From NCBI GenBank assembly GCA_001724265.1, contig MEDY01000344.1, positions 1 through 35,602 of the forward strand: a stretch of DNA of 35,602 nucleotides, read 5' to 3'. Below, in pieces: positions 4,766-34,593 of this stretch. Within the stretch, counting starts at the first letter, position 1. Each line of letters opens with the position of its first letter. The notes beneath the pieces were generated by a model. The model worked only from the letters and a program-made list of their open reading frames with translations. It was not told the origin of the DNA and ran no database searches. This DNA comes from Rhizaria sp. SCN 62-66 (lineage: Eukaryota). A program made the translations under genes and the position numbers.

Positions 4766-5382
4766 GTGTCGCAGGTACAGGTATAGCCGTCAATTCTTGC
4801 CTGTTTGTGCTAGTGAATGTCACATATGTTCGACTCGCGTTGCAGCCTTCATATCTATATGTTCAACCCCTTACCCCAATTGTGTGTTTATTATAATGTG
4901 TTTTAGTTTTCATTTATTGATTGTTGGCTTAAATTTTGTTTTTCTGCTTTTTGTGCCGTGTGATCAGTGGAGTCGGAAATTTGTTACGCGTGCCTGGCCA
5001 TGTTTGAGTTATATTAATGATGATATTCTCCGACGATTGAGCAGGATATCCAGTGTTAATTGAATCTGTGTTAAGATGAATGACGTTAACATTGTGTTAG
5101 ATAGTTGTTCATCACTAGCTCATTTTAAAGTTCATACACAAAATGAATATTTTCTTGTCGGAGACGCGACTGCGGCAGCAGGTCGAGGCACAGAGCCACA
5201 GAGGATTTTGAATAGGAGCCAGAACTTCGACGTGCTTTAATTCTGTAGATTGATCGTCAAGTACTGCTAAAACTACATATCTTGATTAAATCAGTACAGG
5301 CTACTAGAAGACAATATTCTAATCCCCTATTCATTTGGATTCTCTTTTTTAAACGCCTGTTTCTTTCTTCTACCTAGACCGC

Positions 5383-7950
5383 ATGGCAACGACGAGGAAG
5401 CGGTTGAATCCGCGCGATTTTGAGTTCAAAAACAAGACTGGTGAGAAGTTATTCAAGCGCCCCGGCGAGATTAACGGTATCACGTTCACACTTGATGGCC
5501 TCACAGACTGTGACATCGTGCTCGCGGACCACTGCGGACAAGTGACGATGGACGACTCGACCCGCACCCGCGTTGTCGTGGGCCCCGTCGATGGTCCCTT
5601 TTTCCTCCGCAACTGTCACAACTGTCACGTCTCCGTCGCGTGCCGCCAGTTCCGCTGCGTTGACTGCTCCGACGTTACTGTGCGCCTCTACTGCCACACC
5701 AAGTCCCCCGTGGTGTAGACGTCAACGCGCATGACGTTTCTCCCCTGGAATGTCGCCTACCCCGCGCTCGACACGCACTTCGCCGCCGCGCGCCTCGACC
5801 CCGCCATGAACCACTGGGACGTGATCTACGACTTCAACGCCGCGGACCCTGCGCCTGCGGACGCGCCGCACTATACCGTCGCGACTTCATTCAACACGGA
5901 GTCCCGGGTGCTCACAGCCGATACTTTCGCTCGTGCGGACGCTGCCGACCCCGACGCTGATGCCGCGGCTGTCGCGGCGCTGCCGGCCCCCAGCAACCCG
6001 GTCGCGATGCCCGCGTCAGCCGCGTCCGCGGAGCCAGAGTGGGACGCGCCCCTCGGCCTGCAAGACGCCGCCGCCACTGCTGACGCAGAGGCCCAGGATC
6101 AGGAGCAGAAGGCTGCCGTCGTCGCTGCTGATGAGACTGCTGCCGCTGCCGATGCTGCTACAACGGAGCAGAAGGCCGCCATTGACGATGACGACGGTGA
6201 GCTTTTCGGTCTCGTCGAGGCCCCCGTTGGTTTCGCTGCCGCCGTCCCAATCGCTGACGACAACGCTGCCGCCGATACCAACAACACCGGCCTCGTCATC
6301 ACCACAAACGCTGAGCCTGCCGAGCCCGACCTGGCGGCGGCTAAGATGCACGTTCACGTCACCTCGCCCTCGCATAACGGCAGAGCTACGAACAGCACGG
6401 CCTTCAGCCCTAACGGCGCTGGAGCGGGGGATGAGTTCGACGTCTTCTCGCCCGCCGCCCATAGTACGGGGACGGGGACGGGCCGGAAGATGCTGCGTCC
6501 ATCCAAGGCGTAGACTGCCCGCTCCGCCGCGCCCACGCCCAGCAACGCCGCTGCGGCTGCGCCTGTGACTCCTCCCAGTACCGCCAGCGCGACCGCTGCC
6601 GCTGCTGCTGCGGCGGCGGCCACGGCGTCTGCTGAGGCTGAGGCGAAGGCTGCCCAGGACAAGAAGGACAAAGATGAGAAGGAGAAAAAGGACAAGGACG
6701 CCAAGGAAGCTGTTGAGCGCAAGAAGAAAGAGCAACTTGAGAAGGAAAGGCGCGATAAGGAAGCCAATGACGCCGAGGCCGCCGCCGCCGCTGCTGCCGC
6801 CGCCAGCGTTCCAGTGCAGAAGGCTGACGCCGAGGCCGAGGCTGAGGACGCGTGGGCCAACATCGAGGAGCGCGAGCTTGCCGCGACCGATGACGCCATC
6901 GACGTCCCTGCTGTCCCAGAGTCTGGATCCACTGCTACTGCTCCTGCAGGTGCTGCTGCTACTGCGGCAGGGACAAAGCCTGCCCCTGTCCCTGCGACCG
7001 CCCCCGTCTCCGCTTACGCCACCGTGACCGCCACGTCAACATCCGCCCTCCGCAGCGGCGGCCGCACCACATTTGCGTCTCTGCTCTCCTGGGGGCACGC
7101 ACTGGACATCTCCGCCCTGTTGGCCGGTGGCGCCCCACCCCGCGCCGGCGACGGCCCAGGGAGCGCCAGCAAAACCACCGCGCAGCGCGTGGTGTTTTGG
7201 GATGCGCGCACCAACATTTCCTGCTTCCAGTCGCTCATCTGGTCTCTCTGCGGCGCGCCCGCGCTGGACGATGGCGAAGAGGCCGCGCGCAAGAGGCTGT
7301 TGTGTCTCGCAGCGACGCGGTACGCTGCCGGCGACGGAGGCGACGATGCGGCGGTCACGCGTGGCGCTCTCGCGCGGTACTACCTCACACTCACGAGTAC
7401 CACCGGGACGCGTGCTCACAGCGACGACGACGCGGATCACGGCGCTGAGGCTGAGGCAGCGGTGGCAGCGGTGGGCGAGCACTGGGAGCGTGTCGGCTTC
7501 CAAGGCTCTGACCCCAACAGCGACATCCGCGGCACGGGCTGCCTGGGGCTGTTGCAGGTGCAATACCTGCTGCAGCGCGACCCCGCCCTTGCGGCGCGCG
7601 CTTACGCAGCGTCCCGCACCGCTGACCGCGCGTTCCCGCTCGCGATCGTGCTGTTTAACCTCGCGGGACTCGTGCTGCCAGTGCTGCGGTCGCCGGAGAT
7701 CGTCGAGTGGGTTGACCGTGTGCCCCCTGCCGCGCGCGCCGCCGCAGCCGCGGTTGCCGGGCCTGGTGCCCAGGTTAGCGCGGTCGAGACGCTCGCGCTC
7801 GAGGTGTTTGTCGGCGCGATCAGGCGCTTTGAGCGGCTGTGGCGGGCGCGAGGGGAGAGTATCGCTGCGTTTCCGCCGCTCAAGGACGAGCTGGCGGCCG
7901 CTGTGAGGGCGGACCCGCTCCAATTCATCGGCGAGCCCACCAAGGACTGA
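5383..7950 (+). CDS. RP2/TBCC-domain plus ELMO/CED-12-domain fusion protein (about 855 aa), read through two in-frame TAG codons (5716-5718, 6511-6513)
   Basis: ORFs 5383-5718, 5731-6513 and 6565-7950 share one frame and are separated only by TAG. The N-terminus is RP2/TBCC-like ('GPVDGPFFLRNC','CRQFRC','PVV*TS..MTFLPWNVAYPAL','NHWDVIYDFN'). The C-terminus has the ELMO GAP motif 'WERVGFQGSDPNSDIRGTGCLGL'. There is no in-frame ATG after 6513. Ends TGA. Confidence 0.8.
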
Positions 7951-8194
7951 GCGCGCGAATTGGCTGAGCGAGCATGGGATTGAACGTAACTTCTGGACTG
8001 ATGGGAGGTGCCTGGACGACTGAGGTCGAGTCAGGGCCACATGATGAGACTAGTGAACTTTTTATAAATCTGTTCATTCTGATCGTCAAATAGGATATGC
8101 CATCACAAGCTAATATAAAATACGATTTTTTATTTGATTCCTTAATTATATCTCTTAAAGGCTTTCTGAATACCGAAAATCGAGGTGGGCGCGA

Positions 8195-11100
8195 ATGGCA
8201 TCTTTGTACAGTCGCAAGACTGCCCGCCAACCAAGCTCCCCGCCTCCACCGACCACCGCAGCTCATGTTCCAACGCAACAAGCCCCGCCAGCAGCGCCAA
8301 CTGCTGACTTATGCATCTTCTGCTCTGAAGAGTGGCGCTCACTCGAGACGTACGGTGTGAAGGAGGAGGCCGCGTACCGAGCCTCCCTCGCAGCACCTGC
8401 CCATAGCACCATCGCCTCCACCGAGACGCAGGCAGCGCCCACCGCGGCCACCGCAGTCCCCGCCCTGACTGCAGCTGACGCGGTCCAGAGTCCCGTCTGC
8501 GAGTGCGCGCACTGCTTTTAGCGCCGGTGTGCAGTGGCCACCCCATGGGTTTTCTTCTTCACCCAGGCTCCCGCACTCGCGTTCGCGGACTCCTGGCGCG
8601 ACTGGCTGCTGGGCCGCGCTTTCACACTGCCGGACGGAAACACAGCGCCCGCGCTGGAGCGTGACGGTGGGCACGTTCCCAAACACAGCCCTCTTGCGCT
8701 GCTAGTGAGTGCTGATCCAGCATCAGTGTTGGAGCTCGCATCTGCCCCGAGCCCCGTCGCCTCGTCTTTGCCTGCAACAGCTTCATCAGCCAACACTGCA
8801 GCCTCGAGCGCAAAGACACCGGGTGCCGTCAATGCCGGCGTTTCCGAAGGTGTTGCCGCGCCGGAACCCGCTGCCTTTGGTGCCGCCGCTGTTGACGTCA
8901 AAGCACAGTACCTGTCGACCGCGACCGCAGCCTCAGTTGCGGATGCTGAACGCGCGCGCGCTGCAGCAGCAGCCACGAACCCAAACGCTCCTGCACACGC
9001 TGCGACAACAGCGCCAGCAGAGATTCTGACTGTGCGCCTGGCGTCCGCCGCGACTGCCGCCCCCGCCGCGCTCGGCTCGGCGGCGTGTGTCGTTTACACC
9101 GGCCCCGCTGCTGTGTCGCCGCTAGCCCACCGAGGCCGCGCGCACGACCTCTTCGCGGCCCGGCTGCGCGGCGCGCCCGTGCCGACCGCCGCCGCGCTTG
9201 CCGCGGACGCCGCGACCGACGCCGGGCGCGTGCGAGACGCTGCGGCGCGCTTCCCGCACAGTACTCACACGCACACTCACTCTCGCAAGTGCATTCACGT
9301 TGACGCTGGCACTGCCGAGAGTAAGCAGCGCCGGGCTGCCTGGGTGCTGCGCGCCACTGCTGCTCTCGTCCTGCCGCGAGTGTGGGCGTTTGAGCACGGC
9401 GCCGCGGGGAAGCGCGTTTACGTGGTGGCGTCACTGGGCGCGTTTGTGCGGCGGTTTGTGCATATGAAGCCGGAGCATGCGGCGTATTATGAGGTGGTCC
9501 GTGCGGGGGCGCCGGTGAGGCCGTATCTCGATATCGAGCTGACGTGCGATGATCAAAGTAACACATATATCACCAACAACGACCACGCCCAGCTAGCCAA
9601 CAACAGCGCTGACGGTGGCGACCAGTCAGGAAGCAGTGCTCCCGTCTACGGTAGTTCGGATAATAGCTCGAGCTCCGCTTCTGCCACTGCGGTTGACGCC
9701 CCTTTTGCGTTTCCGCCTCCCGTTGCAGTTGTGCGCGTGCTGTTGCAACGCGTATGGCTGCATCTGCTGCTTTTGCGCGGCGTCACGTTTGCGTTTCAAC
9801 CCGACTGTGACCGCAGCATCTCAGGCACCGATGAGAGTCAAGTTCACAAGAAGCGCCTGCTGTGCAAGACTCACGCGCCGTTTGCTACCCGTGCTGGCGC
9901 AGCTGTCAGCGACTTGGACGCGACGATCCGCGGACGCAAGCTCTCCCGACACGTGGTGTTGTCGCTGCCGGACGACGCGCGCATTGCAGCCGCGTCGCGC
10001 ACGCCGCTTTCTCCAATTGCGAGCCGCGAACAGCAGTCCAAGCAAACCGCGGATACTGCCACTACCGCTGGGACCAAGGGCGCCGCAGTTAACGGGGACT
10101 GGGAGCTCGTCGCGACCACGGCCACTGAGAGCGAAGATGCCGCAGTCAACCGTGACGGTAAACACGCCGCGACCCCTGACCTGTGGGGGGACTTGGGGGA
10201 CTGGATGCGCGCACTCCACAACGCAGTGCGCTTTGAGGCTGAACAAGCGCCACCGCACACAGCACCGTTAGCTGTTGATACAACTGCATGTAACAACTTC
10301 CGATGTGCCGCTCCTAAATCAGGACACGCGGGACGTTGTGGCGGGCTGTGTCTCGACTGGGCCCGACTCTGTGACCGCGCTTGCGACGGTGAGCGCGATA
10401 TGAGCGCTAATGAGCACAAACAGAGTCACTCTGGTGAATTCAGGGCTAGCGACCGCAAGTTCATGTTTAGTGACCGTGAGCGCGGAGGTGCATGGCCTCT
10501 GTGTGCGCTTGGGGGAATCTTGCGCTCACGTGCGCTTCCGTGCCCAGGTCTCGCACCAAGTCAATCGGGGCTTGCAACATGCTCTAGGTCAGCAGATGCA
10601 CAATCAGAGCATCCTTCGCAGTCACGTGTGCCGTGTGTTCGATGTGATAACGACCCGCTGATCTCTCTGCCTTCACTGCACACACCGCCTCGTTCGCAGT
10701 CGAATCGCGCTGACACGGACGCGTTTGATCACTCTTCTGAGTCGACGACTGTGACCCGCCTGTCGACTGCCGTCGCCGCGTTCGCGCGCTCGCTATGTCA
10801 CGCACACCGACACGGCCCCTTGATCTCAGCCACAGCGCTGCGATCTACCTTTGCACCCAACACTGCAGAGGCGAACAATACTCCATACTCAGTCAACTCA
10901 GACTCCCCATTGAACGGTACCACTACGAGTGAGTCGGTGAGCGCGCTCGGCGCGTGGGCGGTCGACACAGGTGTTTACACTCGGAATCGCTGTTTCCGGC
11001 TTCTTGGAGCTGCAAAGCGCGGCCGCGCGGCGCACCCACTCGATGTGGCTCCGGCGTGTGCTGAAGCGACCGCTGATGTCGACGTCGCAGCATCACAGGT

Positions 11101-12679
11101 GCAAGGCGCGTCTGACAACGAGGACTCTGAAAGCATTGCAACCGCTGGCGACTCAAAGCGTGTTCGTATTGCTCAGACCCCCCCAAAAATAGTGTCAGAA
11201 GTAAAGCCGCCTAGATGTGAGTGGTCGCGTGCGTACCCCGGGCTGATGGCTCTGACACCAGCACACGTGTCAGCCTCCGTTGCCGTCACTGGTTTTGACG
11301 TCGATGCGTTTTACGCGTCGCTCGTTTCAGTGGAACCACCGTTGCTGCCGACGCCGCCACCACGCGCAACCGCCAGGGATCGTCTTGCAGCTGCAGAAGC
11401 CAGTGCGACCGCTAGAAAGGCAGCGACGCAGTTGAATGGTGTGGTTACCTTGCCACCAGTGAACAAAACATCATCGACAGTGGCGGCCATGATAAACCCA
11501 ACGCTGCCGCCGCTTCCTCGGCTGCAACTGCTGTGCTCCTTAGCATCTTGCAGCAACGAGCAAGCTTTTTCGACAGGTGCGGCTGCGTTGGCTGCTATTC
11601 CGGTGCGACCGCCCCCGAGTTCATTGGCGTATGTGTTCTGTGGCGATAGTCACACGTATACAGAAAGCGGTGACGGTGCCTCCTTTTTAGTGGATGCTGG
11701 AGCAGCATTGGCGTTGCCGACACTGCTGTTAGGCGATGTCACGAATACCGGTCACTATAGTACTGACGGTTTCTGGTCTCATGCTAGCGCACAGAGCCAT
11801 GACAACCAGAATGATGCCACTCTGGCAACAGACAGCAATTCAAGTTTGAGTGAAACTGGGACGCGCACGACTACGACTACAACAGTATTTTCCAGCACAG
11901 ACGTCGCATCCCCGCGTGTGTGGCCGCTGTATCGCGCAGCATTAGTTGCCGCCGACACTGCACTGTGCCGCGCTCTGCCTGTCGTTGCGAGCCTTGTAGT
12001 CGCACAACAACAGCAACAGCAGCACGCTCGCAGTCCTCTGTCAAACTCGGCTTTTAGCGACACGCACAGTCCATTTGCCGCTGGGGCGCGTTTTTTCCCT
12101 GGCACGTCCCCTGTGCCCGCCGCCGAGGCGATGCTTTTGCGGCACCTGCGCTGGGAGCGCGCGCACCTCACGGGTACGCACACGGGTACTCGCAGCACTC
12201 CCACGAGTTCCGGGTCCGTGACGTTGTCGCAATGGGGCGCCGGCCGTCTCTGCGCCGCCCCCACCACCAACACACCCGCGGCCAGAAAGGCGTCGCCAGC
12301 CTCCGCAGCGCCAGCGCTCAGCGGCGCAACCGCCGCGACCGCGACTGTCGGGTGGGCAGATACTGCGGCGGCAGCGACTGTGGTGGTGCGCAGTGTAGAG
12401 GTGGAGTTTGTCGCGCGCGGCGCTGTGTGCTGGCATAAACGCGCACCACACCGGGCCAACGCCACTGTGCACGCACTGCGGATTGACTTTGCGCCTTTAT
12501 CGCACAGGAGCGGCAACAGTAGTGACAACAGCGGTGCAAGTGCGGTTGCAGCAGTGACCATGGGCTCAGTGACTTCGGTGACGACAGTGCAGCGGTGCTT
12601 TGATCCGGAGTGCAGGGGATTTACGGGGCCAGAAGTGCGACTAGACAACTTTGATTACGACAAGCCCTTGCTTTTGTGA
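8195..12679 (+). CDS. PRIMPOL: PrimPol DNA primase-polymerase (about 1494 aa, heavily expanded), read through in-frame TAG at 8519-8521
   Basis: AEP motifs 'YYEVV..PVRPYLDIEL' (DxE), 'KLSRHVV' (SxH), 'VDTGVYTRNRCFRL', and a C-terminal UL52-type Zn finger 'CWHKRAPHRAN...QRCFDPEC'. ORF 8195-8521 (ATG start) is in frame with 8534-12679 (GTG start). Ends TGA. Confidence 0.88.
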
Positions 12680-13610
12680 TCTCCCTATCCGTCACATCTT
12701 CGCGAGCAGTCTCGGTACCCGACTTACTCGAATCGTCGACGGAGACGACGGACGACGTGCGCCCGTCGCCCCCTCCAATTGCATTAAGCCAATTTCCAGC
12801 ACGCATCCATACGTGCATTTGATACCCGTTCTATCTGTCGTATAATAAATAGAAGTGCCGTTCTAAAACATCCTTTATTGTGTGGTGTTCGTGTATCTAT
12901 GAGACTTAAACATTGGTTCGCGCAGGTGGTGCCCGAAGATCCGGCAGCCAGACTCCAGCTTCGTTTGATGCTATCTCATCTGTACAAATGCAGTCATTGG
13001 TGGGCGCGCAACTTATTATGTGAGGGTGCTATATAAAGACTTGGAGTCGTTGTTTGCAATCTTGATGTTGTCACACAATCACGTCGTTTTCATGGGATTT
13101 ACTTGCGGTCGTTGGTGCCTGCTTCTGCAGCGTGCTCCTTCCAGTCACCAACGAGTCGTTTAAGACTTTTTATCAAGACATCAAGGATTGTAAACGCGTT
13201 AATCCACTATAGCTTGACAGTTCATATATTTTTGTTGTATAGTCAGTCGATTTTATTTACTGAATAACTCGTAAATTGGAATATCCCGTGTCAGTCCGTC
13301 ATGACTGGGAGCAACACAATGGGAGCAACTGAAGCTGAATTTACCTAACCTATTTGAGAGAGATAATCGTCAAAAGACAGATTCGCTACTGTTTTACAAC
13401 ACCAAGCATGTGTGCAACTATAATAATTTATTTGTGCCTTCTAGAATATGAGTTAAAGACTCCAACCAGTTGATATGCACAACCCGATCCACGTGGGTTT
13501 AGATCTCATCCTCCGCTCACCCCTCCACGCCCCATATGTCTTCTCACGACAATATTCTATCTAATAACTCCTATGACACGATTTTCATGTCGCGCATCTT
13601 GCTTTATCAG

Positions 13611-15059
13611 ATGCGTCTTTTGGCGTCCGCGCTTGTCGTCGCGCTGGCTGCAGTGCTAACTGGCGCGTTGCTCCTTTTATCGACGCCGCGTGCGTCGATT
13701 CCCGCCCACCTCCTGCATCACCCTCTGATCTACACTGAGAACTTCATCCCGCCCGCCGTGGGCGCCGAACTACTCGAGCTCATTAAGACCATGCGCGTGT
13801 TCCCGACTAACGCCGCGGACACCCAGTTCTACCGCACCCTCCGCGAGGACATTGGCGAGGCCGTCCCGCTCACTCCCACAGCCCCTAACTCTACCGGCGC
13901 CGTGGCTGCCTCGGGCGCTAGCGGCCGCTGCGAGCACCCGTTCCTGATCCCCAACAAGAACCGCACCGCGTGCGTCCTTCCGGGTCGCGTCGACGTCGCA
14001 CGCCACTTCATCACCACTGGCGGCCCCGACGGCGTCAAGGAGAGTTACTCACGTCTGCTTTCGCGCGTGCAGTCGTTCGGCCGCTACATGTTCGATCTGG
14101 ACCAGTACCCCGTCGTGCAAGCGCTCTTTGCCTCCGAGTCGTTCAAGCGCTCGGCGCAGGGCGTGTGCCCGGTCGGCAAGCGGTACTTGGACCCGTTCCA
14201 GTTCAACTTTATCATGCAAGTTCCCGGTCAAACGGTCGCGATGCACATTGACGCGCCGTACTTTTGGGGTGCGACGCGCTTCGAGTTTCCGCAGTGGCTG
14301 CTGGCCGTTATGGTCTTCTCGGGGCTGTTCCAGGACCGGTTTGTGGACCAGGTGCAGATCGTCGGATATTTGCACCAGTGGCAGCCGTCGCCGGAGCGTC
14401 AGGGAGAGTTCGTCTACTGGGACACCGAGGCTGACGTGCCGCTCAAAGAAAGCCCCGTCCCGCTGGCCGGGTCCGCGGTTGACGGCAGCAAGCTCGTCCA
14501 CGCAGCGGCCGTGTACCGCCCAGCCGACGCGCCCCCGCGCATGGACAAGAGCAAGGGCGCTGAGCTCCGCTACCGCGGCTCCAGCAAGGGCGGTGACAAC
14601 AAGAGAGTGGGGAGCGACGATGTATGGGATTTGATGGAGGGCGAGCGGCGTCTGGCGTCGTACTCGACGGACGACCTGCGTATCACGATCGTGTACCGTG
14701 CGCGCTGCTTCAAGGATGCCGCCGAGGCCGAGCGTTTCAGGAAGCTGCCACAGGAGGATGCGATGTCGCTCGAGTTTGTGCTTAGTAAGCTGCTCGACGA
14801 GCTTATCCGCCGCGGCGCAGTCACTGAGGCGGACAAGCAATACTACCTGACGGGCTCGCGCGGCAGTAAGCCTGCCGCGGCGGCGAGTGCGTTGAGTGAG
14901 GCCCGGCTTGAGCTCGCGGTGAAGTTGCTGGAAGAGTACGTCAAGTACCCGCTGGCAACGGCCGACAAAGCCTTGATTCCGTACAACTACTGCGCGCTGG
15001 GCCAGCTGTATCCCGCGCTGAGCCCCGTCATCGCGCTGCTTTGTCCTGCATCGGACTAA
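13611..15059 (+). CDS. Uncharacterised protein with N-terminal signal peptide/anchor and a 2OG-Fe(II) dioxygenase-like motif pattern
   Basis: Hydrophobic N-terminus 'MRLLASALVVALAAVLTGALLLL' (ATG 13611; the ORF is open from 13536 through AT-richer sequence); 'PGQTVAMHID' (HxD), distal 'LVHA' His and 'LRITIVYR' Arg; ends TAA. Confidence 0.6.
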   Translation: MRLLASALVVALAAVLTGALLLLSTPRASIPAHLLHHPLIYTENFIPPAVGAELLELIKTMRVFPTNAADTQFYRTLREDIGEAVPLTPTAPNSTGAVAASGASGRCEHPFLIPNKNRTACVLPGRVDVARHFITTGGPDGVKESYSRLLSRVQSFGRYMFDLDQYPVVQALFASESFKRSAQGVCPVGKRYLDPFQFNFIMQVPGQTVAMHIDAPYFWGATRFEFPQWLLAVMVFSGLFQDRFVDQVQIVGYLHQWQPSPERQGEFVYWDTEADVPLKESPVPLAGSAVDGSKLVHAAAVYRPADAPPRMDKSKGAELRYRGSSKGGDNKRVGSDDVWDLMEGERRLASYSTDDLRITIVYRARCFKDAAEAERFRKLPQEDAMSLEFVLSKLLDELIRRGAVTEADKQYYLTGSRGSKPAAAASALSEARLELAVKLLEEYVKYPLATADKALIPYNYCALGQLYPALSPVIALLCPASD

Positions 15060-15639
15060 GATCCAACGGCAGCAGGAAGAGAGATTTTGACTTTGACGAC
15101 CAATTTTATCTGTGACCTCGTCACAAATCACTTAAATAAACTCACTATAGAATTAACAGCAACGTTTGGTTGTGAATTTTGTTGCTATAATATATTAATA
15201 TAGCAATATCACACAGATATCGTCGCAAAACGCTTGCTGAGCCCCCTTTTCCAGTCAAAACGGTTCGCAAAGTCGCCGGTTCAGAACGGTTCACCACCGG
15301 ATTTATCAATGTCTGTAGAGAGTGACCATTAACGCATATAGTGCTTCTAATAATGCAGCCGTAGTGTTTGTACACTCTTTTATGTTATATTTTGCATGCG
15401 AGTGTTGAAGACCAATTCGCACGCCACTATGACTCATTTAGTTTCCCCCAACGAGCCACTCTCATTTGCCCACCTTCACGTACTGATTTCGCACCCTCCT
15501 GTAATATAGAACAAATACCCACCTTGTTGGACGTTACCATCACGTACAAGGGACTTGACAGAATACTGAAGTCACTGCATTCTGCGCCTGTGCGCCCGCT
15601 GTCGCGCTTCTGCACGCTGTCTTTCCCCGCTGCTCCCTA

Positions 15640-18600
15640 ATGTCCTTCTCCTCCCGTCGTGGGTTGCCGCGCCAGAGCGACCCTTCGCTGAGCATCGACG
15701 CCCGCAGCGCCAACACCAGTGCAGACAGCGTTGCGCGCTACTTGGAGGAGATTAACCGACGCAACAACCGCGGAGCTTCACCTTCTCGCGGCTCCTCGCC
15801 GGCAGTCTCCGCCGCCTCTGGCACCGCGACCCCCACGCCGTTCAACCACAACAACAGCGCGGCTGGCGCTGGTGCTGCTGCTCCCGCGGCTGCCGGTGGC
15901 GACGCGGGGACGACGCGGTCCGTTACAGCGTCCGGCAGCGACGCGTTCTACGCCGGGGCCCCGCTCGCCGACACGTCTTTCTACTACGCCAGCGGCCACC
16001 CGCAGCGCCCCAGCGTCAGCGCCAGCGTCAGCGCCAGCGTCAGTAGCGCGAGCACGAGCACGGGAGCGGCGTCGGTGACGTTCGGCGCCGGCCAGGTGGC
16101 GAACTACACGCCGCGCCACTCGCGCGCGGGATACGGCGGCGGGGCAAGCGCCGGTGCCAGTCCACACCGCGGCTCTGCTTTGAGCCTCCACGGTCACGGT
16201 GCCGCCAGTCATCCCCCTAGTCGCTCCCCCGGTCCGGGCCACGGCCAGCTTGGCCACTACGGCGCCGGCGGTGCGACGACTCTGGACCTCCACGGCCAAA
16301 GCACGGCGCCGCCGACCGTGCCAGGCTCCCCTGGTCACTTGAATCTCGCCGCACTCGCACAGGCACCCTCCTCTTCGCGGCCGTCGTCAACCGCGTCGTC
16401 ACTGGCCGACGGCTCATCCTCCACAAACGCTGTGACCGCTGCAACAGCAGCCAGCCGCTCTTCTGGGGCGACTGGAGTAGCGGCGGCGGCGACGGCGGCG
16501 GTGTTGTTGACGGCAAGGGATGCGTGTGCGCAGGCGCAGGCGCTAGCGTTGACCGATAGCGACTACGGCGCTGCTGAGGCCGCCGCGGTCGCCAGCGCTG
16601 CGAGACCACGGTCCACCCGCGCGCTCATTATAGCTGCTGACTCCAACGCCAGCATTCCCGCAGATGGCAACAGCGAATCGAGTGGATCGGCTGCTGGAGC
16701 TGTCGAGAAACACACTGATGTGAACAAGCATCAGTCGCCGCAGTGGCAACAGCAGCAGCAGCTTTCGCAGCTGCGGTATGTGTCCTCCGCGCCTTCTCTC
16801 GGCGCACTTACCGCCGCTACCGCCACCACAAACAGTTCCAGCAGACGCAGCGGCGCGGCGGGTATTGCGCCCGGTGCAGTCGCGGCCGGCCACCGCATTG
16901 ACCTACTCAACCTCGACTCTCCCACCTCGGCCTCTGCGAGTACGTCTGTGAGCAGTAGAGGGCCGGCGCCGACTGTGGTGACCGTGAGCGCAGGCTGGCT
17001 GCGGGGCGCGCGCGACTGGCTTCCCGGCGCGCCTCACGTTGCGCTCCCCTCGCTTGAGTCAATCATCGCGCTACTCCAGCCCGTGGATGACGATGCGGCC
17101 GACTGCGATGCAGACGCCGCCAATCCCGCCACGCACTCTGGCAATAACAACGGCAACGGCGGCGGCGGTGGCGGTGCTAACGCTCTGGTTGCGCTGCCGC
17201 CACTGTCGCCGCTGCTCTGCGTGCCGGGCGGTCCCGTCGCGCGCGGCGACCGCCGTAGCCACGGCTTCCAGCGGCCGCTGCACCCGCGCCAGCTGCTCGT
17301 GTGGGCGCAGATCGCGCTGCTTCTGGTCACGTTTGCCTGGCTGTTCCTCGCGACCGTGCGCGCTGACACACCGCGCATCGTCCTGGGCGTCATCGCAGCA
17401 CCTTTCGTGCTCGCCGGCGTCGTCGCGTTCGTTGTCGTCTCCGTGGCCGACCCCGCGATCGCCGAGCTCGCGCTGGTTCCGGTCCGCGCCGCTGACATCG
17501 CCCGGCTGGACCGCGCGCTCAACGCGTCGGGCGGCTGGGTCCCGCGCCGCGTGCCGGAACTCGTGCACCGTGCGTACCTCGCCCTCCGCGCAGCCGCGAA
17601 ACCCCTCGCGGACAGCGACGGCAGCGACGCCAATGGCGATACCAACACGCACAACAACAGTAACCACAGTAGTGAGGACGTGGTGGCGCGCCGACTGCAG
17701 GATGGGCTCGACGTTACCGGCGCGCCGCTTGTCGGCCGCGGAGGCGTCGTCCTATCCCAGCCAGTCTTCGCCACCGCTGCGCAAACGCAGACCCACGCAG
17801 TCGCCGGCGCTGTGGCGGTCAGCGCGGGCAACACCTCGAGCAGCAGCAGCAACAGCAGCAGCGCTGGCAGCGGTCGCGACTGTGGCCAGTGTAGCGCCGC
17901 GGGCGGCGACTGCGCCCACACCCACACCCGCGCCCACGCGCAGACGCAGGCGCCTGTCAGCATCGGCTGCGAGCTGCAAGGCAACGACGCGGAAGACCCG
18001 GACGCGGTCTCGCTCGGCACCGGTCCACGCCGCGCTCCTCAAAGCGCCGCCGCAGCCGCGCACGCCGCTGCCGCTCGCAGCGATGGCAGCGACGGGATGA
18101 CGATCGCGACGTCGTTCGTGCCCGGTCCAGGCTGCCCGCGCGCTACGGCCCGCGCCCCCGCGTTTTGGTGGCCGCCGGCGCTGCTCGCGGAGGCCGAGCT
18201 GGCCTCTGGCGTTGAGCGTCGCGCGCGCTTCTCGTCTCTGCTGCCTTCGTCGCCACACGGCACAACACTCGGCGCAGCGCATAATGCGGTGCAGCGTGGG
18301 CCTTCAGTCGCCGGTCACGCCGCGGTGAGCTGGCCGCCCGTTCCCGACGCTGCGCGCGCCGCCCCGCGGGCCCGCGTCGCATCGCCACGCGATACTCTCA
18401 ACGCCGCACTGCGCGGGGACGTTACCAACTGTTTTGCGAACGACAAGGTGTCGGGGCTCGGTGTGGTCGTGCTCACGATCACCGCTGACGAGCGTGAGCT
18501 GCCGCCACCCGCTGACACCATAAACGCAAGTAGCCCGAATGTAAATGCTGCTGTGGGCTCCACAGGGCTCGCGGCCGCTCCGAGCGCGAATGCGAGTGTG

Positions 18601-20497
18601 AGCGTGGAGTGGCTACCGGCGCGCGGTATCGTTTGCCAGCGGTGTCGCGTCGAAGCGCCAGCCTCAGACCCGCGCCGCAAGCACTGCTTCGTCTGCAACA
18701 AGGTACGATTCTCTTCTCTATTATCTTCTAAACTAACAGTACTTCTCTCTCATGCGTTGTAAACACATCCGTCCACAGCTTCAATTTGCCCATCAGTCGC
18801 CCCGTGTTCTTTAACTTCAATCTCATGTCTCTATTCTTTTGTTTTCGCTTTGCACAGTGTGTGTCTGGGTTTGACCACCACTGCCACTTCCTCAACACCT
18901 GCATCGGCTCCCGCAACTACCGCTCTTTCTTCACCCTCATCTCCTGCCTCCTTACCGTCGAACTCACCGTGCTCGCCGCGCTCATCTACACGTCAGTGCT
19001 CTCCTTCTCTGAGCCCGCGAAGCTGACCCTCACGCCGCTCGCAGGCTCGCTCACTGCGCTGCGAGTGCTCGTGCTCGCGGGCGCGGCCAACGCGGCGGGC
19101 GGGATCGCCGCGGTCGGAGCGCTGTGGTGTTTCCACGTCCTGATTGCGCTGCAGGGCAAGACGACATACGAATGGCTTATCGCCCGGCAACAGAGGCTGG
19201 TACGTGTACAGTTTAATCAAACGCGTTTATGTCAATTTAACTCACACACGTCATATATATTTGTATCTTATTTTCGGTCAATCTTCTTCTAACCCGTAGA
19301 ATGTCTTCTTCTTTTTTTCCTTTTTCTTTGTTCTAACAAATTTAGCGCGAGGTGGAGATGTCCGTTTCAACGTCAACCTCGTCGGTGCAAATGGCGTCCC
19401 GCGCGCGCGCCCGCTCGGCCCCAGACCGCGCCGCCGCCACCCCTAACAATGACTCACAGTACCAACAGAACCAGCAACTCGCTCTGCGGTCACAGCGCGC
19501 TGGCAGCGCCGTCAGCGGCGGCGGCGCGGCCACACCGCCGCCGGCCTCTGCGCGCGGTCTGTTTGCGCGCCACCACCACAGCACCAGCGTCAGCCACAGC
19601 AACAGCAACGGCTACGGCGCGGGCTCCACCCCCAGCCACGCCGGGTTCAGTGGCACGGGCAGCGTTGGCAGTGTGGCTGGCGCGGACGCAGGCAGTAGCG
19701 GCGGGCCGTATCGACCTCCAGCGCGCTCGTTCGGGTCCACGACTCCGACACCGCGGTTCTCCCAACAGCAGCAGCAAGCGCTGCAGCAGCAGCAGGACTT
19801 GGAGCAGCAGCAGCTAGAGCGGCAGTACGGCACGGCGAGCGACCCCTTCGCTGACCCTATCACATCTAGTCGCAGCGACGGCCCTCATAGCGGCGTCGGC
19901 GGTGGTGTCCCGATGCGCGCTGTGGCGCGGCCGCTGTTTGCAGGCTCGTCCGGCCGTTTCAGCTCTGCTGATCGCGGCGGCAGCGACCGTGAGGAACCAC
20001 TCGATGTCATCCGCGAACAGCACGAACACGAGATTCAGCAGCACCAGCAGGAACATCAACATCGGCAACAACAGCAGAGTAGTGACACCGAGATCTCCGA
20101 CAGCGTTCATAGCGGCAGGGGTACCAGTGCCAGCAGCAGCGGGGGAGCCAAGCCCGCGCTCGTGCGCATTACGATCATCCCGCCCACACCGCAACAGCCG
20201 CAGAGCCGCTTGCTGCAAGAGCAGTCACCGCAGCTACAGTCTCAACAGTCCGCTCAGGCGCAGTCTCAGTCTCAGACGCAGTGGGGTCAGACGCAGAGTG
20301 TGCAGTCAACGTTCCATGCGGTGCACGCCGCCGGCAGCCCCGTCAACGAGGCCGGCGAGAGCCAGGAAAGCTCCGTCGACACGGGAGACGCGGACGGTGC
20401 GTCTGTGACCAGCGCTGCGGCTGCTTTTGTGGACGCGGGCGACATTGACGTTGCTGATGTTGTTGTTGAGGTCGACGCCACTGAGGCCTTGGCGTAA
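15640..20497 (+). CDS. DHHC palmitoyltransferase (ZDHHC1/11-like); exons 15640-18702, 18858-19199, 19346-20497 (about 1518 aa)
   Basis: Splicing rebuilds 'CQRC...KHCFVCNK|CVSGFDHHCHFLNTCIGSRNYRSFF' and 'KTTYEW'; N-terminal 'RRSHGFQRPLHPRQ' plus 2 TMs. Both introns are phase 0 and restore the frame. Ends TAA. Confidence 0.9.
18703..18857 (+). other. Spliceosomal intron 1 of the DHHC gene (155 nt)
   Basis: GTACGA...TTTGCACAG, AT-rich; removal joins CNK to CVSGFDHHC. Confidence 0.9.
19200..19345 (+). other. Spliceosomal intron 2 of the DHHC gene (146 nt)
   Basis: GTACGT...long pyrimidine tract, CTAAC branch-like motif, TTTAG; joins in frame to ORF 19352. Confidence 0.85.
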
Positions 20498-21384
20498 GCC
20501 TGACGATGCGGCGTTTGACGTCGCATTGTCCCTGCGTTATAAGCATTGATATAGCATTGTCTTTGCTCACCGTATCATATTGTATCTTTATTCTCATCAT
20601 ATTCTGTGCAAGTAATATTGTTGCTTGTATCCTTCTTCCCTTTGTTTTGTCACTGTCTACTACCTTCCCACCACATATTTAGCTATTCATATCGTGTTTT
20701 TTCGTCTGACTGCGATACGCAACACTTCCGTGCGTCCTTTTTGTGTAAGTGTCTATCCAGAGTCTTATCGTGAGCGTGTACTGTTTATAATCGATTGCTC
20801 ATATTATGTTTTCACCACAAACGCTGTCTGCACTGCAGTCGCATGTGCGTGAGTGTAGCACGCTCGTAGCCTTTAGAGGCGTTGACCTCCTGTCTTGTCA
20901 CCATTCGATCGCTTTCTCTACAAGTGCACACGATGACACGACCGCATGCGAAACACGCTTCATTGCTTTGCGCGGAGTTGCCAGTGTGTTAATGCGCTTG
21001 TTTTAGCGCTCATGTAGAGGCATCCAGAAACAGTGTCACTTTTTGACGCACCTTCTTCGAAACTACCGATATCTAGTGCTTTTTCCGTTCATTATTACCG
21101 TGAGTTTGTCACTCTCCGTTGTCATTCTCCGTAATTCATTTAGTGAATATGTACGAATATCATGTCCACTGTAGACAGATATTGGCTACAGAATCCTACC
21201 ACATCCATCTGAGGTTATATAAAATACACTCAATTGTTGATGAGCGGAGCACATGAAGGAAAATTGGCAATAGGTCTGTATTGTGTGATACGACATGGAA
21301 GATAAACATGTGTAAGAATAGATATTAGATATAGGTAGCAAGTCTAACAGAATCATGACTGAGTAGTGAACGAAACGCGCAGTT

Positions 21385-24300
21385 TTACCACCAGCCGCCC
21401 TCGTACTGCGCAAACGCCTCAGGTAGCGCGGCCGCGTAGAGCGCGCCGAGCGTCGACGCGCTCACCGGCATTTGCGAGAGCGGCAGCGGCGGCAGACTGC
21501 GCTGCGCTCGCACGCCCGCGCGCGTCGGCAGCAGCGCCACCGCCGCGTCCGGCAGCGACAGCGCCAAAGCGAGCGCGAGTCCCGACCAGGGTTGCGCAGC
21601 GCCGCCGATGGCAGCGGCCACGTCCTCGTCGCCGCTGCCGCCGCCGGAGCCGACCGACACGCACCACTCCTGCCGCTGCACCGCCGGCAGCGGCTGCGGC
21701 GCGCGGGCCGGCCGCGGCGGCGCTCCAGAGCCCGCCCCAGCAGCGGCAGCAGCAGTGGCGGCGGAGAGCGCGGCGAGCGCGGCGACCGTGGGGAAAGTCT
21801 GGATGTGCGCTGGAGCAGCGGCAGTGGGCGCGCGGGGAGCCCACAGCGCAGCCAGCACGGCGCGCGCCCACAGCAGCGTGGTCAGCAGCGGCACCAGCCG
21901 TCCCCCGCTCTTCTGGCCGTCGCCGCTGCTGCTGCTGTCGCCGTGCGAGGGGCTGGGCGTTGCGCCGCACACGGCGAGAGCCGCGGCGGCCACGCTGCGG
22001 TTGAGGCCGGACAGCGCCAGCGACGGCGGGGCGGCGGCCAGTGCGCCGCGCGCGATGACCGCGGCCGCCGCTGAGCCGGCAGCAGGCGCGGGCGAAGCCG
22101 CGGTCTCCGCCGCCGCCGCCAGCAGCAGCGCACCGAGCGCTGTAATGACGGGGGCAGAGAGGGTGGGCGATGCAAAGACTGCGCCGATGGCCGTTGGACG
22201 CGCGCGCGAGATCGAAGCAGGCGCGGCCGTAGCGTCTGCGCCGGCGCGAGCGTTGACGTTCACAGTCGTCTCGAAAGCAATGAGCTCGCTGGTGGTCGCC
22301 ACGCACGCCAGCCGACCGCGGCCGATGCTGACGCCGCTGGCGCCGTCCGCAATCGCGGCGGAAACGCGCTCCCGCTCAGCGGCAAGCAGGCGCTCGAGCA
22401 GTGCAGTCGCAGAGTCGGCCGGCGCCGCCACAGCCGCGTCTGCGGGTGAGAGCAGCGCCAGATCAACCGGCCGCCAGCGGCGACACACGCGCACCACAGC
22501 CGTAGGTGCCTGCGCCTGTCGCAGCGAGACGGAGAACGGCGTCCAGCCGCCGCGCCGGACGGTCTGTGCCCCGCCCGCTGGCTCTGCGGTGGGCGACGCG
22601 TCGGAGGCATTGAGCACCCAGTGTCCCGCGCCCGCGCCGCGGTGGAAGCGGCCGACAGCCATGGCGACGGCGGCCGCGCCCGCCGTCGCAGTGGCCGCCG
22701 CGGCGGGGCCCGCGGGCGCGGCGGCGTAGGCTGGGAAGTGCAGCAGCAGCGCTTCAGTCGCGTTGTTCAGCCCGGGCGCGTGGTGCGCTGGGTTGGTGCT
22801 GGGCGCGCCACGCAGCAGCAAGACGGTCAGTGTGGAGGCAGCGTGTGCAGATTGCACTGCGCGGGCCAGGGCACACGCTCCTGCTACCGCGCACGGCTCG
22901 GTCACCGCTGCACTTGCGCCGCTCTCCGTCTCACTCTCAGTCTTGACGACCGTAGGCGCAGTGAGAGTCGCCGCGGCAGCCGCAATCGCCGCCGTCGTGG
23001 CAGCCGCAGCTGCCGTGGTGGAAACCGCGGGCGCCGCGCGGTCGCCGGCCGCTGCCACCACGGTTGACTGCGCGCCGCCTGCGCTCACGGTCGCAACTTC
23101 GCCGCCGAGCGTCAGCGTGCCGCGGGCGCTCGTGGCGCCCGCAGCGGCCGCGGCGGCGGCGGCCGCGGAGGCCGCGGCTGCAGTCGCGCGCAAGTGCGCA
23201 CGCTGCGCCGCCAGAGGGCCCGCGACGGCGCCAAACGCAGGTCCAGACCCGGCAGCCCTGGGCACGGGTAAAGACGCTGGCGCCGGCACTGCGAGACGCG
23301 AAGCGAGCCGGGCCGCGGCGAACGATGCCAGCGCGTGCACTGGGCGCAGGTGGCTTACGGTCACCATCGGAGGCGGCGCCTCCGCCACCACGCCACCGCC
23401 GCCGGACGAGCCCGTGCCTGCAGTGCTATCAAAAGTGTCGACGGCTCTACTGGCGGCGGCGTCACCGGCGGGCACGGCGGCGAGCTCAGCCCACAGCGGC
23501 GTCTGCGGCGACGCGAACTGCGAGCTCAGAGGCGGCAGAGGCCCGCCGTGCATTGCGTGGCCTCCCGCGGCCGCACGCACTGCATCGGCCGCACGCACTG
23601 CATCGGCCGCAGATGCGCTGCTGTTGCAGCTGCTTTCACGGTCCCCGTCCTTGCTGTTAGGACTGTTTGCGCTGCGGTCCGCGCGGTCCGCGCGGACCGA
23701 GTCGGCGCCGAGCCCCGCCCAGTCTGCGCGCGCACCCACGCCGCCGGCCGCTGCGGGCCCCGCGGCGGCGGAGGACAGCGAGAGAAACGGCGCGGAGTAC
23801 GTCAACCCTGCGCTCGCACCGTTGAGCCACACCGTGCGGCGCAGCAGCAGCGGCGTCTCTTCCAGCAGCATTGCGCCCGCGCTCGCGCCAGGGCCTGTCA
23901 CGGCGGGGCTCGCATAGGGGGCGTTGTTGGCGTGCACAGGGTCTGCGGCGCCACCAGCCACCGCAGCGCCGCTGCCGGCAAGACCCGATGACGCGCCGTC
24001 AAGGCCCGGGCACAGGAACGCCTCAGACGCGGCGTCGGCGGCGCGCGCGGCGGCGGCGGCGGTGCCCCCCGCGGAGGCCGCCGCCGCCGACACGGGCGCG
24101 GGAGCGCGCAGCCGGGCCCGCGCTGCCGCGAGCGTGGCCTCGGCCTGCACGACGCCGGCGTGTTGCTCGAGCAGCGCGGTGCGCAGTGCGGTGTGTGCGG
24201 GCGTGCCGGCGACGGCGGCGGCGGGCGTCGCGGTGACGGTGCCGGTCCACGACGCGTGCAGAGCAGCTGAGGCCGCCTGCAGAGCCACCGCCGCGGCGGC

Positions 24301-25131
24301 CGCGGAGCGCAGCGCCTGGCGGCGGTCGGTCAGCGTTGCCAGCGCCGGGGTAGCGCGCGCGGCGGCGGCGGCGGACACCACGGCTGCGCCACCAAGAGCG
24401 CCGCCAGAGCTGTTGTTGCCGCTGCTGCTGCTGGAGGTGGGCCTTGAGGCGGCGGCCGCGGCAGCGGCGGCGGATGTGGGCGCGTGCTGCGCGTAGCCGG
24501 TGGTGTACGCGCCCTGCTGCTGCGGCTGTGGCTGTGCCTGCTGTGCGTACGGCTGCTGTTGGTGGTGATATGGTTGATACGGGTGTTGCTGTGGCTGCGT
24601 GTGGGCATGTGCGTGAGCCGGAGCGGCGTAGCCGAGCGACATGTGGTGCTGCTGCGGGGGCACGGCGCCTAGCTGCGGCCGGCCATACGCGTGCGCCTGT
24701 TGCGGGGTTCCGTACTGCAGCGGCGGCTGCTGCTGCTGCGGGTGCTGCGGCTGCTGGTAGGGAAGCTGCACATGCTGCTGCTGCTGAGGGTAATGCTGCG
24801 GGACCTGCGGGTGCTGATGATAGCCTTGCACACCTTGCTGCATCATCCCGCCGTGGGGAGGCGAGCGCATGCCGCCTGCGCCGGCGACGCCGGGCGCGGC
24901 CCCAGAGACGGGCATGTTTGGTGAGCCCATCGCGCCGTGGGGCGGGTAGTGCCCACCCTGAACGGGCTGCACCGGCGTCATCGGCGCACCCGCGTACTGT
25001 GTAAAGGGGCCGTTGTAGTGGGACCGCGCTGAGGCGTGTTGTGGAGTCCCGTTGTATGCGGGAGTGCCTGCGTTGGCCTGCGGTTGCTGCGTCGGCGCGG
25101 AGCCCGCCCAGTGTTGATTGGGATGGGACAT
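21385..25131 (-). CDS. Hypothetical 1248-aa protein with Q/P/Y/H-rich (prion-like or activation-domain-like) N-terminus and Ala-rich body
   Basis: Long uninterrupted ORF with ATG start and TAA stop, bounded by AT-rich flanks; no family recognised. Confidence 0.7.
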   Translation of the reverse strand: MSHPNQHWAGSAPTQQPQANAGTPAYNGTPQHASARSHYNGPFTQYAGAPMTPVQPVQGGHYPPHGAMGSPNMPVSGAAPGVAGAGGMRSPPHGGMMQQGVQGYHQHPQVPQHYPQQQQHVQLPYQQPQHPQQQQPPLQYGTPQQAHAYGRPQLGAVPPQQHHMSLGYAAPAHAHAHTQPQQHPYQPYHHQQQPYAQQAQPQPQQQGAYTTGYAQHAPTSAAAAAAAASRPTSSSSSGNNSSGGALGGAAVVSAAAAARATPALATLTDRRQALRSAAAAAVALQAASAALHASWTGTVTATPAAAVAGTPAHTALRTALLEQHAGVVQAEATLAAARARLRAPAPVSAAAASAGGTAAAAARAADAASEAFLCPGLDGASSGLAGSGAAVAGGAADPVHANNAPYASPAVTGPGASAGAMLLEETPLLLRRTVWLNGASAGLTYSAPFLSLSSAAAGPAAAGGVGARADWAGLGADSVRADRADRSANSPNSKDGDRESSCNSSASAADAVRAADAVRAAAGGHAMHGGPLPPLSSQFASPQTPLWAELAAVPAGDAAASRAVDTFDSTAGTGSSGGGGVVAEAPPPMVTVSHLRPVHALASFAAARLASRLAVPAPASLPVPRAAGSGPAFGAVAGPLAAQRAHLRATAAAASAAAAAAAAAGATSARGTLTLGGEVATVSAGGAQSTVVAAAGDRAAPAVSTTAAAAATTAAIAAAAATLTAPTVVKTESETESGASAAVTEPCAVAGACALARAVQSAHAASTLTVLLLRGAPSTNPAHHAPGLNNATEALLLHFPAYAAAPAGPAAAATATAGAAAVAMAVGRFHRGAGAGHWVLNASDASPTAEPAGGAQTVRRGGWTPFSVSLRQAQAPTAVVRVCRRWRPVDLALLSPADAAVAAPADSATALLERLLAAERERVSAAIADGASGVSIGRGRLACVATTSELIAFETTVNVNARAGADATAAPASISRARPTAIGAVFASPTLSAPVITALGALLLAAAAETAASPAPAAGSAAAAVIARGALAAAPPSLALSGLNRSVAAAALAVCGATPSPSHGDSSSSGDGQKSGGRLVPLLTTLLWARAVLAALWAPRAPTAAAPAHIQTFPTVAALAALSAATAAAAAGAGSGAPPRPARAPQPLPAVQRQEWCVSVGSGGGSGDEDVAAAIGGAAQPWSGLALALALSLPDAAVALLPTRAGVRAQRSLPPLPLSQMPVSASTLGALYAAALPEAFAQYEGGWW

Positions 25132-25494
25132 CCTCCTGGTAGAACCATGATTATAGAATGCGAATTAAAAATGAATGTATGTTAAAAAGTTGGATTTTAC
25201 GAAACTTTCTTGGACTCGTATTATGACGAATGCTCTTGTCGCACAACTCACATTCAGTTAGCCCAGAAATGTCAGACCAGATTCGCCTGATGCTCACGGT
25301 CGTGCTCTCGCCAAGTCCGCACTACAGCTACAAAACAGTGGATAATCATCGAATATTGTCCCTTTATCGAATATATTATTGAACTTTCCAATAGATCTGT
25401 GGCAAAAGATCACAAATACAACTTAAACATCTCCAAATATATTCATATATGCCTCCATCTTGTCAAGATACTCCACGAGTTGTTGCGGTGCATC

Positions 25495-26388
25495 ATGCCC
25501 AGCTTCAAGTCCAAACCGCGCGCACTGTAGGCGCCACGCTCACCGCGCACGCCCCCACGCGACAAGCGTCGCGCCGATGTGCCCTCTGTCACGCTGCACG
25601 ATGCCACTCTTGCTATCGACCAAGTCTTGCCCTCACCAGAAGCCGACTCAGAGGTTGCAGTCGAGGTCATTGCTCCGAGGTCTCGCACTGGCGCAGCTCC
25701 GAAACAACAGCTAATCATGCAACAGAACCGCGCAAACACGCGTAGCTCTAGCAATAGCAAGCTCGTGGCACAGAGCAGCAGAAACGTGGACGCCAGCGAC
25801 AACGACGGAGACAGCGACGACGACCGCGAGAACACGAACGACAGCAGCACGAACGGCACGAGTCGCGGAGACAGAAACGGGCGCAGTCGCACCTTGGTGA
25901 CAAAGCGTGTCGCCCAGCAGCAGCTGCCCTCGGTCACATGCCGCTTGCAAGCCCGCGCCCTAAAGTCCTCTGCATCAGCGCCCGCAGCGGCGGCGGTGAG
26001 TTCAGTCACCACGGCGAAAACGAAGACATCTGTGTCCACGGTCACGCAATGTGCACCCGCATCAGAAACGCAGTGGACGAGCGCGACAGTAGTCACGGTA
26101 ACCTCTGGTGCAAAGACTGAAACCCAGAAGGTCGTGGTGGCAACGGGCCCGCCCGCGCCTGCGAGTGTCGCACGCTACGAGCAGGCTCGCACACTGGTCA
26201 CAGCGACCACAAACGCGATTGGGCAGCACAACAACAACAACAACAACAACGGCTTCACGGCAGAAGGATTCACCGCCTTCCATCTGTCAGGGCGCCCACT
26301 CACGACGCTGCCGCTCCGGCTCCTCTGTGCGCCGTTTATGATGGCGACGGGTAGCGGCGACCAGAACAGTCCGCGGCCAAAGTTGTGA
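25495..26388 (+). CDS. Hypothetical low-complexity protein (about 297 aa); probable ATG at 25495 with in-frame TAG at 25528-25530
   Basis: CATC-ATG CCC AGC TTC AAG...CTG TAG GCG... is in frame with the GTG-started ORF 25579-26388; the GC-rich segment begins near this ATG; ends TGA. Divergent from the 25131 gene. Confidence 0.5.
26228..26250 (+). repeat. (AAC)n microsatellite encoding poly-Asn
   Basis: caacaacaacaacaacaacaac run within the CDS (HNNNNNNNG). Confidence 0.8.
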
Positions 26389-31902: not shown

Positions 31903-32164
31903 GTGTGGTGTGATTACGTTTAATGTTACCTAGAACTTTGAAAAATATGTCAATTTTAAAACAAATTAAGTAAATAAAAAATCGAACTTAATCATATTTT
32001 TGTGTGTGTGAAGTTACGGATTTATTCTAAATAGTATTAGTGGCATGAAGCTGATGGGGCAGCAAACTTCACAACTGCGACGGGCACTACGTCAGTCACA
32101 TGGGGCCACTGATAAAATATCGCAAAACGTGCCACAAACAGCGTATAGTAGTATGGGGGGGAGC

Positions 32165-34520: not shown

Positions 34521-34524
34521 TGCT

Positions 34525-34541
34525 AATAAGTTAGACTTATT
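34525..34541 (-). promoter_or_regulatory. Candidate late promoter of the MCP gene: TCTA in AT-rich context, lying in an inverted repeat
   Basis: Minus strand AATAAGT-CTA-ACTTATT; 11 nt separate TCTA (34532-34535) from the ATG, as in CroV/mavirus late promoters. Confidence 0.4.
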
Positions 34542-34574
34542 CATATATGCTATGAGAAAAAAGATGATATAGAA

Positions 34575-34591
34575 ATGTAAACGGTTTACAT
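34575..34591 (-). terminator. Palindrome immediately downstream of the PLA2-gene stop codon; candidate 3'-end or polyadenylation hairpin
   Basis: ATGTAAAC-G-GTTTACAT perfect inverted repeat, 2 nt past the TAA at 34594-34596. Confidence 0.4.
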
Positions 34592-34593
34592 GT

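Follow-up and report, generated by a model that had tools for sequence, protein, structure and literature searches.

The 35,602-nucleotide contig MEDY01000344.1 of Rhizaria sp. SCN 62-66 (hereafter the window, meaning the whole 35.6-kb stretch of DNA that was analysed) carries four in-frame TAG codons in three of its ten host genes. In the organism from which it derives, the meaning of UAG is probably glutamate, with UAA and UGA kept as stops; this reading, which is drawn from comparative sequence analysis, is given a probability of roughly 0.68. It is very probable that the organism translates UAG in one way or another. A first-pass annotation of the window had proposed that TAG is a sense codon and that TAA and TGA are stops. 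This proposal is supported by the ungapped alignment of a TBCC domain across one of the TAGs, the glutamate columns in which two of them fall, an ELMO-coding region devoid of methionine, the continuity of the reading frames and the presence of the same codons in independent assemblies.

In-frame TAG codons and their surroundings

Two of the four TAGs, at 5716 and 6511, are located in a gene that joins an RP2-like TBCC domain to an ELMO domain (Table 1). Residues 35-151 of its product match the Pfam TBCC profile from position 4 to position 120 of 120 without a gap (E 1.5e-31), and residues 689-831 match the ELMO_CED12 profile (E 1.8e-18) in the same frame. In the column occupied by TAG 5716, glutamate is found in human RP2 (QPIIESS), in human TBCC (RAIVEDC) and in two metagenomic orthologues, P0004 (SPVIESS) and L002 (DPIIETS). 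The TBCC domain had five PDB matches, and the four alignments compared (two RP2 and two TBCC) all have glutamate at this position. The equivalent residue of human RP2 is E138, and E138G is described in passages of PMC3124502 as a disease-associated variant. TAG 6511 closes a short linker motif, the common form of which is R-K-x-L-[RK]-P-S-K-x-E, with glutamate where the window has TAG. It aligns with the glutamate of RKVLKPSKAE in the L002 orthologue (local alignment E 2e-5) and with that of KLLRPSKKE in P0004, the latter match being weak when taken alone. Glutamate, and never glutamine, is therefore the aligned residue at both of the sites that can be assessed (2/2), and the other two of the four TAGs are without usable homologues. 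The 478 residues that follow TAG 6511 include no methionine, and the ELMO domain keeps its conserved GFQG...RGTG stretch. Since the domain is intact and no methionine precedes it after TAG 6511, ELMO would be made only by translating both TAGs.

TBCC- and ELMO-type domains both act as GTPase-activating proteins for Arf-like GTPases. The joining of a TBCC/RP2-like and an ELMO domain in a single protein was observed in three organisms, namely those of the window, L002 (2368-5286) and P0004. Protein database searches with the TBCC-ELMO protein returned one homologue only, P0004, and the TBCC domain had no relatives among IMG/VR viral contigs.

The third TAG, at 8519, lies in a long gene with an AEP motif, the product of which may belong to the PrimPol-like family. 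This assignment is indirect: a Pfam Herpes_UL52 match (UL52-type zinc finger, E below 1e-7) was found in five of the seven homologues scanned, and the protein itself gave no Pfam match and no PDB match, including when P0006, its larger catalogued part, was the query. A search with its N-terminus gave 15 matches, two of which were the protein's own pieces and 13 were homologues limited to residues ~355-470, so the amino acid at TAG 8519 cannot be inferred from them. Upstream of TAG 8519 its frame has the best codon-usage score (-3.95 vs -4.27 and -4.29), as it has downstream (-3.76 vs -4.12 and -4.18), and no ATG occurs between the TAG and codon 424. As a sense codon, TAG 8519 is moderately supported. 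Public protein catalogues split this gene at the TAG into P0007 (108 aa) and P0006 (1381 aa, with a non-ATG start), which indicates that prokaryote-style gene calling mis-annotates the proteins of this organism. Taken over all sites, the frame of the TAG is the likeliest by codon usage both before and after 5716, 6511 and 8519, and after 25528. The last of these TAGs is weakly supported as a sense codon; in the 62 codons that follow it (25531-25716) frame 0 is the best by codon usage and contains no ATG.

The census of stop triplets points in the same direction. The 8,989 host codons, counted with exons joined, include four in-frame TAGs, no TAA and no TGA, and no frame break was found. The first-pass annotation had reported the same four codons in the same three genes, as well as the lack of in-frame TAA, TGA and frameshifts in roughly 9,000 codons, and both statements hold. 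Its claim that no host gene ends in TAG also stands. The number of gene ends had to be corrected from nine (five TAA, four TGA) to ten, with TAA at six and TGA at four, and the TAA stop it had placed at 18762 lies inside intron 18703-18857 of the DHHC gene. The argument that the absence of TAG from nine ends has a probability of (2/3)^9, about 0.03, is weaker than stated, as it assumed equal stop usage and counted the intronic TAA. Among the putative glutamate codons, TAG occurs four times, GAG 245 times and GAA 68 times, which gives TAG a share of 4/317 (~1.3%); UAG amounts to 0.04% of all codons.

The sequence around the TAGs is GC-rich and coding-like and looks nothing like the three introns seen in the window, which are AT-rich, 120-155 nt long and have GTACGW donors and CTAAC-type branch sites. 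Local GC content and codon-usage scores agree on this point with the earlier description. The triplets that follow the TAGs are ACG (5716), ACT (6511), CGC (8519) and GCG (25528), as had been noted before, and the 90 nt downstream of the TAGs fold no better than shuffled sequences (z from -0.76 to +0.37). Because the 3' contexts differ and no unusual downstream RNA structure is present, the TAGs are unlikely to depend on one programmed signal for readthrough, as the first-pass annotation had also concluded.

Independent sequence data were available from two DNA runs of two other studies (X3 and X4), the contigs of which were compared with the window as listed pieces. X3 contigs covering 5854-7206, 7330-9550 and 24578-25600 are identical to the window and include TAGs 6511, 8519 and 25528. 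X4 contigs covering 8305-9064 (with two differences, neither of them at the TAG) and 24720-25600 keep TAGs 8519 and 25528. TAG 5716 is covered by none of the listed X3 or X4 pieces, the depth at 5724 being 12.9 in X3 and 11 in X4. One of the X4 contigs has a variant at 5724 and continues for 75 letters or more in both directions; no difference is listed at 5716-5718, and the JGI contig L001 carries TAG 5716 letter for letter (GTGGTGTAGACG). A contig of a further run, X6, which is probably DNA, has a change at 8484, extends at least 54 letters each way and is unchanged at 8519. Among the contigs of the two other studies is a strain with differences at 9 other positions, which keeps the TAGs. 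As the same TAGs occur in independent assemblies, sequencing or assembly error is excluded.

Alternative readings and a possible origin of the UAG assignment

If the standard code were in use, the TAGs would be premature stops, belonging to nonsense alleles or recent pseudogenes that had become fixed in the population. Under the GC3-rich codon usage of the window (GC3 being the GC content at third codon positions), TAG results from about 58-61% of single-step nonsense mutations, which makes it the expected nonsense codon. The amino acid is changed by the strain difference at 7706, within the ELMO region, and by both of those upstream of TAG 8519, which speaks for premature stops. However, premature stops would mean that three of ten adjacent genes, all in a compact region, had been disabled by four nonsense changes and that no frameshift, TAA or TGA had arisen in 8,989 codons. 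Both traceable changes would also have to come from GAG, the probability of which (2/2 assessable TAGs) is 0.013-0.049 under random nonsense mutation, and the joint probability that both come from GAG and that all four codons are TAG is 0.002-0.006. Moreover, the downstream domains are intact, four of the five strain differences downstream of the TAGs are synonymous (six of ten among all coding differences), and the TAGs were found in three studies. Premature stops are thus improbable. That the TAGs are spliced out with small introns, or altered by RNA editing, before they reach the ribosome is very improbable. The window does contain introns, and the pyrimidine run CTGCTTTTAG in front of TAG 8519 resembles an acceptor site, but the composition around the TAGs is that of coding sequence and the TBCC alignment passes 5716 without a gap. 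None of the four TAGs coincides with a credible joint. The joints that appeared in the comparison of the runs with the window were rejected as introns, all of them being located in low-complexity repeats with sides of less than 30 letters.

The remaining alternatives accept that UAG is translated. It is conceivable, although unlikely, that UAG is ambiguous and ends some genes while being read through internally, as glutamate or by near-cognate tRNAs, in a manner comparable with Blastocrithidia (for UAA) and Condylostoma. Such ambiguity would suit the great rarity of in-frame UAG (4/8,989 codons) and the apparent TAG end of a gene in the relative L002. In addition, the ten gene ends are too few, so that occasional TAG stops at a frequency of 10-20% could be missed. 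On the other hand, none of these ends is TAG (0/10), the sites have neither context nor structure in common, and the conserved glutamate at one of them is functionally relevant and would not be restored by near-cognate decoding. Near-cognate readthrough of UAG usually inserts Gln, Tyr or Lys. Slightly less likely again is a sense UAG that specifies another amino acid, most plausibly glutamine, as in NCBI table 15, Iotanema and some phyllopharyngean ciliates. Glutamine is the commonest outcome of UAG reassignment according to passages of PMC5304391 and PMC11687900, glutamate and glutamine are similar residues, and only two sites are informative. Nevertheless, both of these sites have glutamate in every aligned homologue and glutamine in none, and one of the glutamates is kept from human RP2 and TBCC to these protists.

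Several observations weigh against the reading of UAG as glutamate. The choice of the amino acid would depend on two sites of one gene, and the evidence base is one 35.6-kb window of the organism. The probability that four of four nonsense changes give TAG is 0.12-0.14, which is not significant alone. At so low a frequency of UAG, full reassignment and low-level suppression would look alike. TAG 25528 is located just 11 codons past the candidate ATG and may be the stop of an 11-codon upstream open reading frame (ORF), and around TAG 8519 the N-terminal part of the protein is without homologues and both upstream strain differences change the amino acid, as mentioned above. None of the listed pieces from the polyA RNA run X8 or from X6 spans a TAG, and the tRNA scan of the window found none. 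An X8 contig (19272-20114) was observed to begin inside intron 19201-19345, with an extra C after 19318; a contig starting in an intron implies that the library may hold unspliced RNA or DNA. The closest relative found also weighs against the reading. L002 is a 185-kb metagenome contig of ~50% GC with a TBCC domain 51% identical to that of the window. On its minus strand, at 6108-9125, an ORF for a PDK1-like kinase seems to end at TAG and is followed by non-coding-looking sequence, and no in-frame TAG was found in five L002 genes. In this relative UAG apparently still terminates translation, and the change in UAG would then not be shared at that distance.

Reading UAG as glutamate could have arisen by a short series of steps. 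A duplicated tRNA-Glu(CUC) gene would gain a CUA anticodon through one substitution, at anticodon position 36, and this anticodon would pair with UAG and not with UAA, in keeping with the reasoning in passages of PMC5304391 and PMC11687900. Recognition of UAG by eRF1 would be weakened, and GAG-to-TAG changes, each a single G-to-T step, would then be tolerated. Since UAG makes up so small a part of the putative glutamate codons, the assignment may be recent or inefficiently decoded. There is a little better than an even chance that the window records the capture of UAG at an early stage, in a GC-rich, non-ciliate-like uncultured eukaryote whose relative still terminates at UAG. If so, it would offer a natural snapshot of stop-codon capture without AT mutation pressure and a young case on which codon-capture and ambiguous-intermediate models could be tested, and it would show again that the eukaryotic termination machinery can read UAG and UAA apart.

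The window, its organism and neighbouring features

The coding blocks of the window are GC-rich (62-75% GC, GC3 0.62-0.84) and are separated by AT-rich spacers (39-45% GC). The domains recognised by Pfam are of eukaryote type and include anoctamin, TBCC, ELMO and thioredoxin, and the DNA was found in bioreactor, wastewater and activated-sludge runs of several studies. The window is best explained as part of the nuclear genome of a GC-rich, intron-poor eukaryote that has not been cultured. A contig with many genes, high GC content and spliceosomal introns is, in our judgement, not ciliate-like. A protein search with the anoctamin returned the window's own protein as the sole match, its anoctamin part had no match among genome contigs, and no Rfam family was matched in the window. 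In a protein atlas, an intact ORF next to the TAG genes was placed in Eukaryota and in no narrower group.

Table 1. Positions of host gene ends, TAG-containing genes, in-frame TAG codons and introns in the window
Feature	Position	Strand	Remarks
Gene ends, TAA	4765, 15059, 20497, 21385, 30517, 31902		21385 on the minus strand
Gene ends, TGA	7950, 12679, 26388, 27570
TBCC (RP2-like) + ELMO gene	5383..7950	+	855 codons, two in-frame TAGs, ends TGA
In-frame TAG	5716..5718	+	codon 112, mid TBCC domain, Glu column
In-frame TAG	6511..6513	+	codon 377, end of short conserved linker motif RKMLRPSKA-TAG
Long PrimPol-like protein gene (AEP motif; family assignment indirect)	8195..12679	+	one in-frame TAG, ends TGA
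In-frame TAG	8519..8521	+	codon 109, 108 codons past first ATG
DHHC-type gene	15640..20497	+	three exons, introns 18703-18857 and 19201-19345
Low-complexity protein gene	25495..26388	+	candidate ATG 25495, ends TGA
In-frame TAG	25528..25530	+	codon 12, weakest of the four
Third intron	28020-28141		after short first exon of another gene

GTAAGT motifs overlap the TAA stops at 4765 (4762-4767) and 31902 (31899-31904) and were considered as splice donors. As such they are unproven and were rejected, because GTACGW is the donor of all three real introns and GTAAGT shows no excess in the window (9 matches vs 6.2 expected); a terminal intron at these two gene ends is nonetheless conceivable. A separate block of lower GC content (about 50%, GC3 0.47-0.50) was observed on the minus strand at 32772-35601, with two ORFs that both end in TAA. 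One of them encodes a virophage-type major capsid C-terminal domain (PF22031, E 4e-10) and the other a parvovirus-type phospholipase A2-like domain (PF08398, E 4e-9). To judge by these domains, a virophage or polinton-like element appears to have integrated beside the host genes. Neither the capsid protein nor the phospholipase protein had relatives among IMG/VR contigs.

Comparison with known nuclear codes

Nuclear codes in which UAG is reassigned to glutamate together with other stop codons are the first to be compared. The peritrich (table 30) and Blastocrithidia (table 31) codes share the stop-to-glutamate change of UAG with the window. Both also read UAA as glutamate, and Blastocrithidia reads UGA as tryptophan, neither of which is seen here; since none of the 8,989 codons is an in-frame TAA or TGA, the window does not belong with these UAR=Glu codes. 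In Oligohymenophorea sp. PL0344, UAA encodes lysine, UAG encodes glutamate and UGA is the sole stop, as set out in passages of McGowan et al. (2023, PMC10553269). The window resembles PL0344 in the glutamate meaning of UAG, for which PL0344 uses a dedicated suppressor tRNA according to the same passages, and differs from it in that TAA ends six of the ten genes and never occurs in frame. In the relevant passages of PMC11687900, PMC5304391 and PMC10553269, UAG=Glu appears only alongside a reassigned UAA, in peritrichs, Blastocrithidia and PL0344.

Codes that decouple UAG from UAA, of which nuclear genomes offer few, are the nearer relatives in form. Phyllopharyngean ciliates are among them, and UAA is their preferred stop, as in the window; they carry UAG in 78-91% of genes, unlike the window. 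Leucine is the meaning of UAG in phyllopharyngean metagenome-assembled genomes, glutamine in Hartmannula, Trochilia and Protocruzia, and serine in Scotinosphaera (all from passages of McGowan et al., 2024, PMC11687900). A code of the table 15 type would place UAG at conserved glutamine positions, and both informative sites of the window (n=2) are glutamate. Reassignments of UAG alone, with UAA and UGA kept as stops, are described in passages of Panek et al. (2017, PMC5304391) for the rhizarian exLh (UAG=Leu) and for Iotanema spirale (UAG=Gln). As in these two organisms, the in-frame codons of the window are exclusively UAG and its genes end in UAA or UGA only. The mechanism predicted for them in the same passages, a tRNA with a CUA anticodon unable to read UAA, is also the one envisaged here. 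The differences concern the amino acid, which in the window is apparently glutamate rather than leucine or glutamine, and the abundance of the codon, as 384 UAGs in 71 transcripts are given for exLh in PMC5304391 against four in three of ten genes of the window. No report of UAG=Glu with UAA and UGA both kept as stops was found in the open-access literature text, and a code of this kind in a GC-rich lineage would be a new assignment among nuclear codes. Judged by the features that define the class with sense UAG and terminating UAA and UGA in PMC5304391, the window has UAG in frame within conserved coding sequence, a single aligned residue at its two assessable sites, gene ends of the expected kind and the same codons in independent data.

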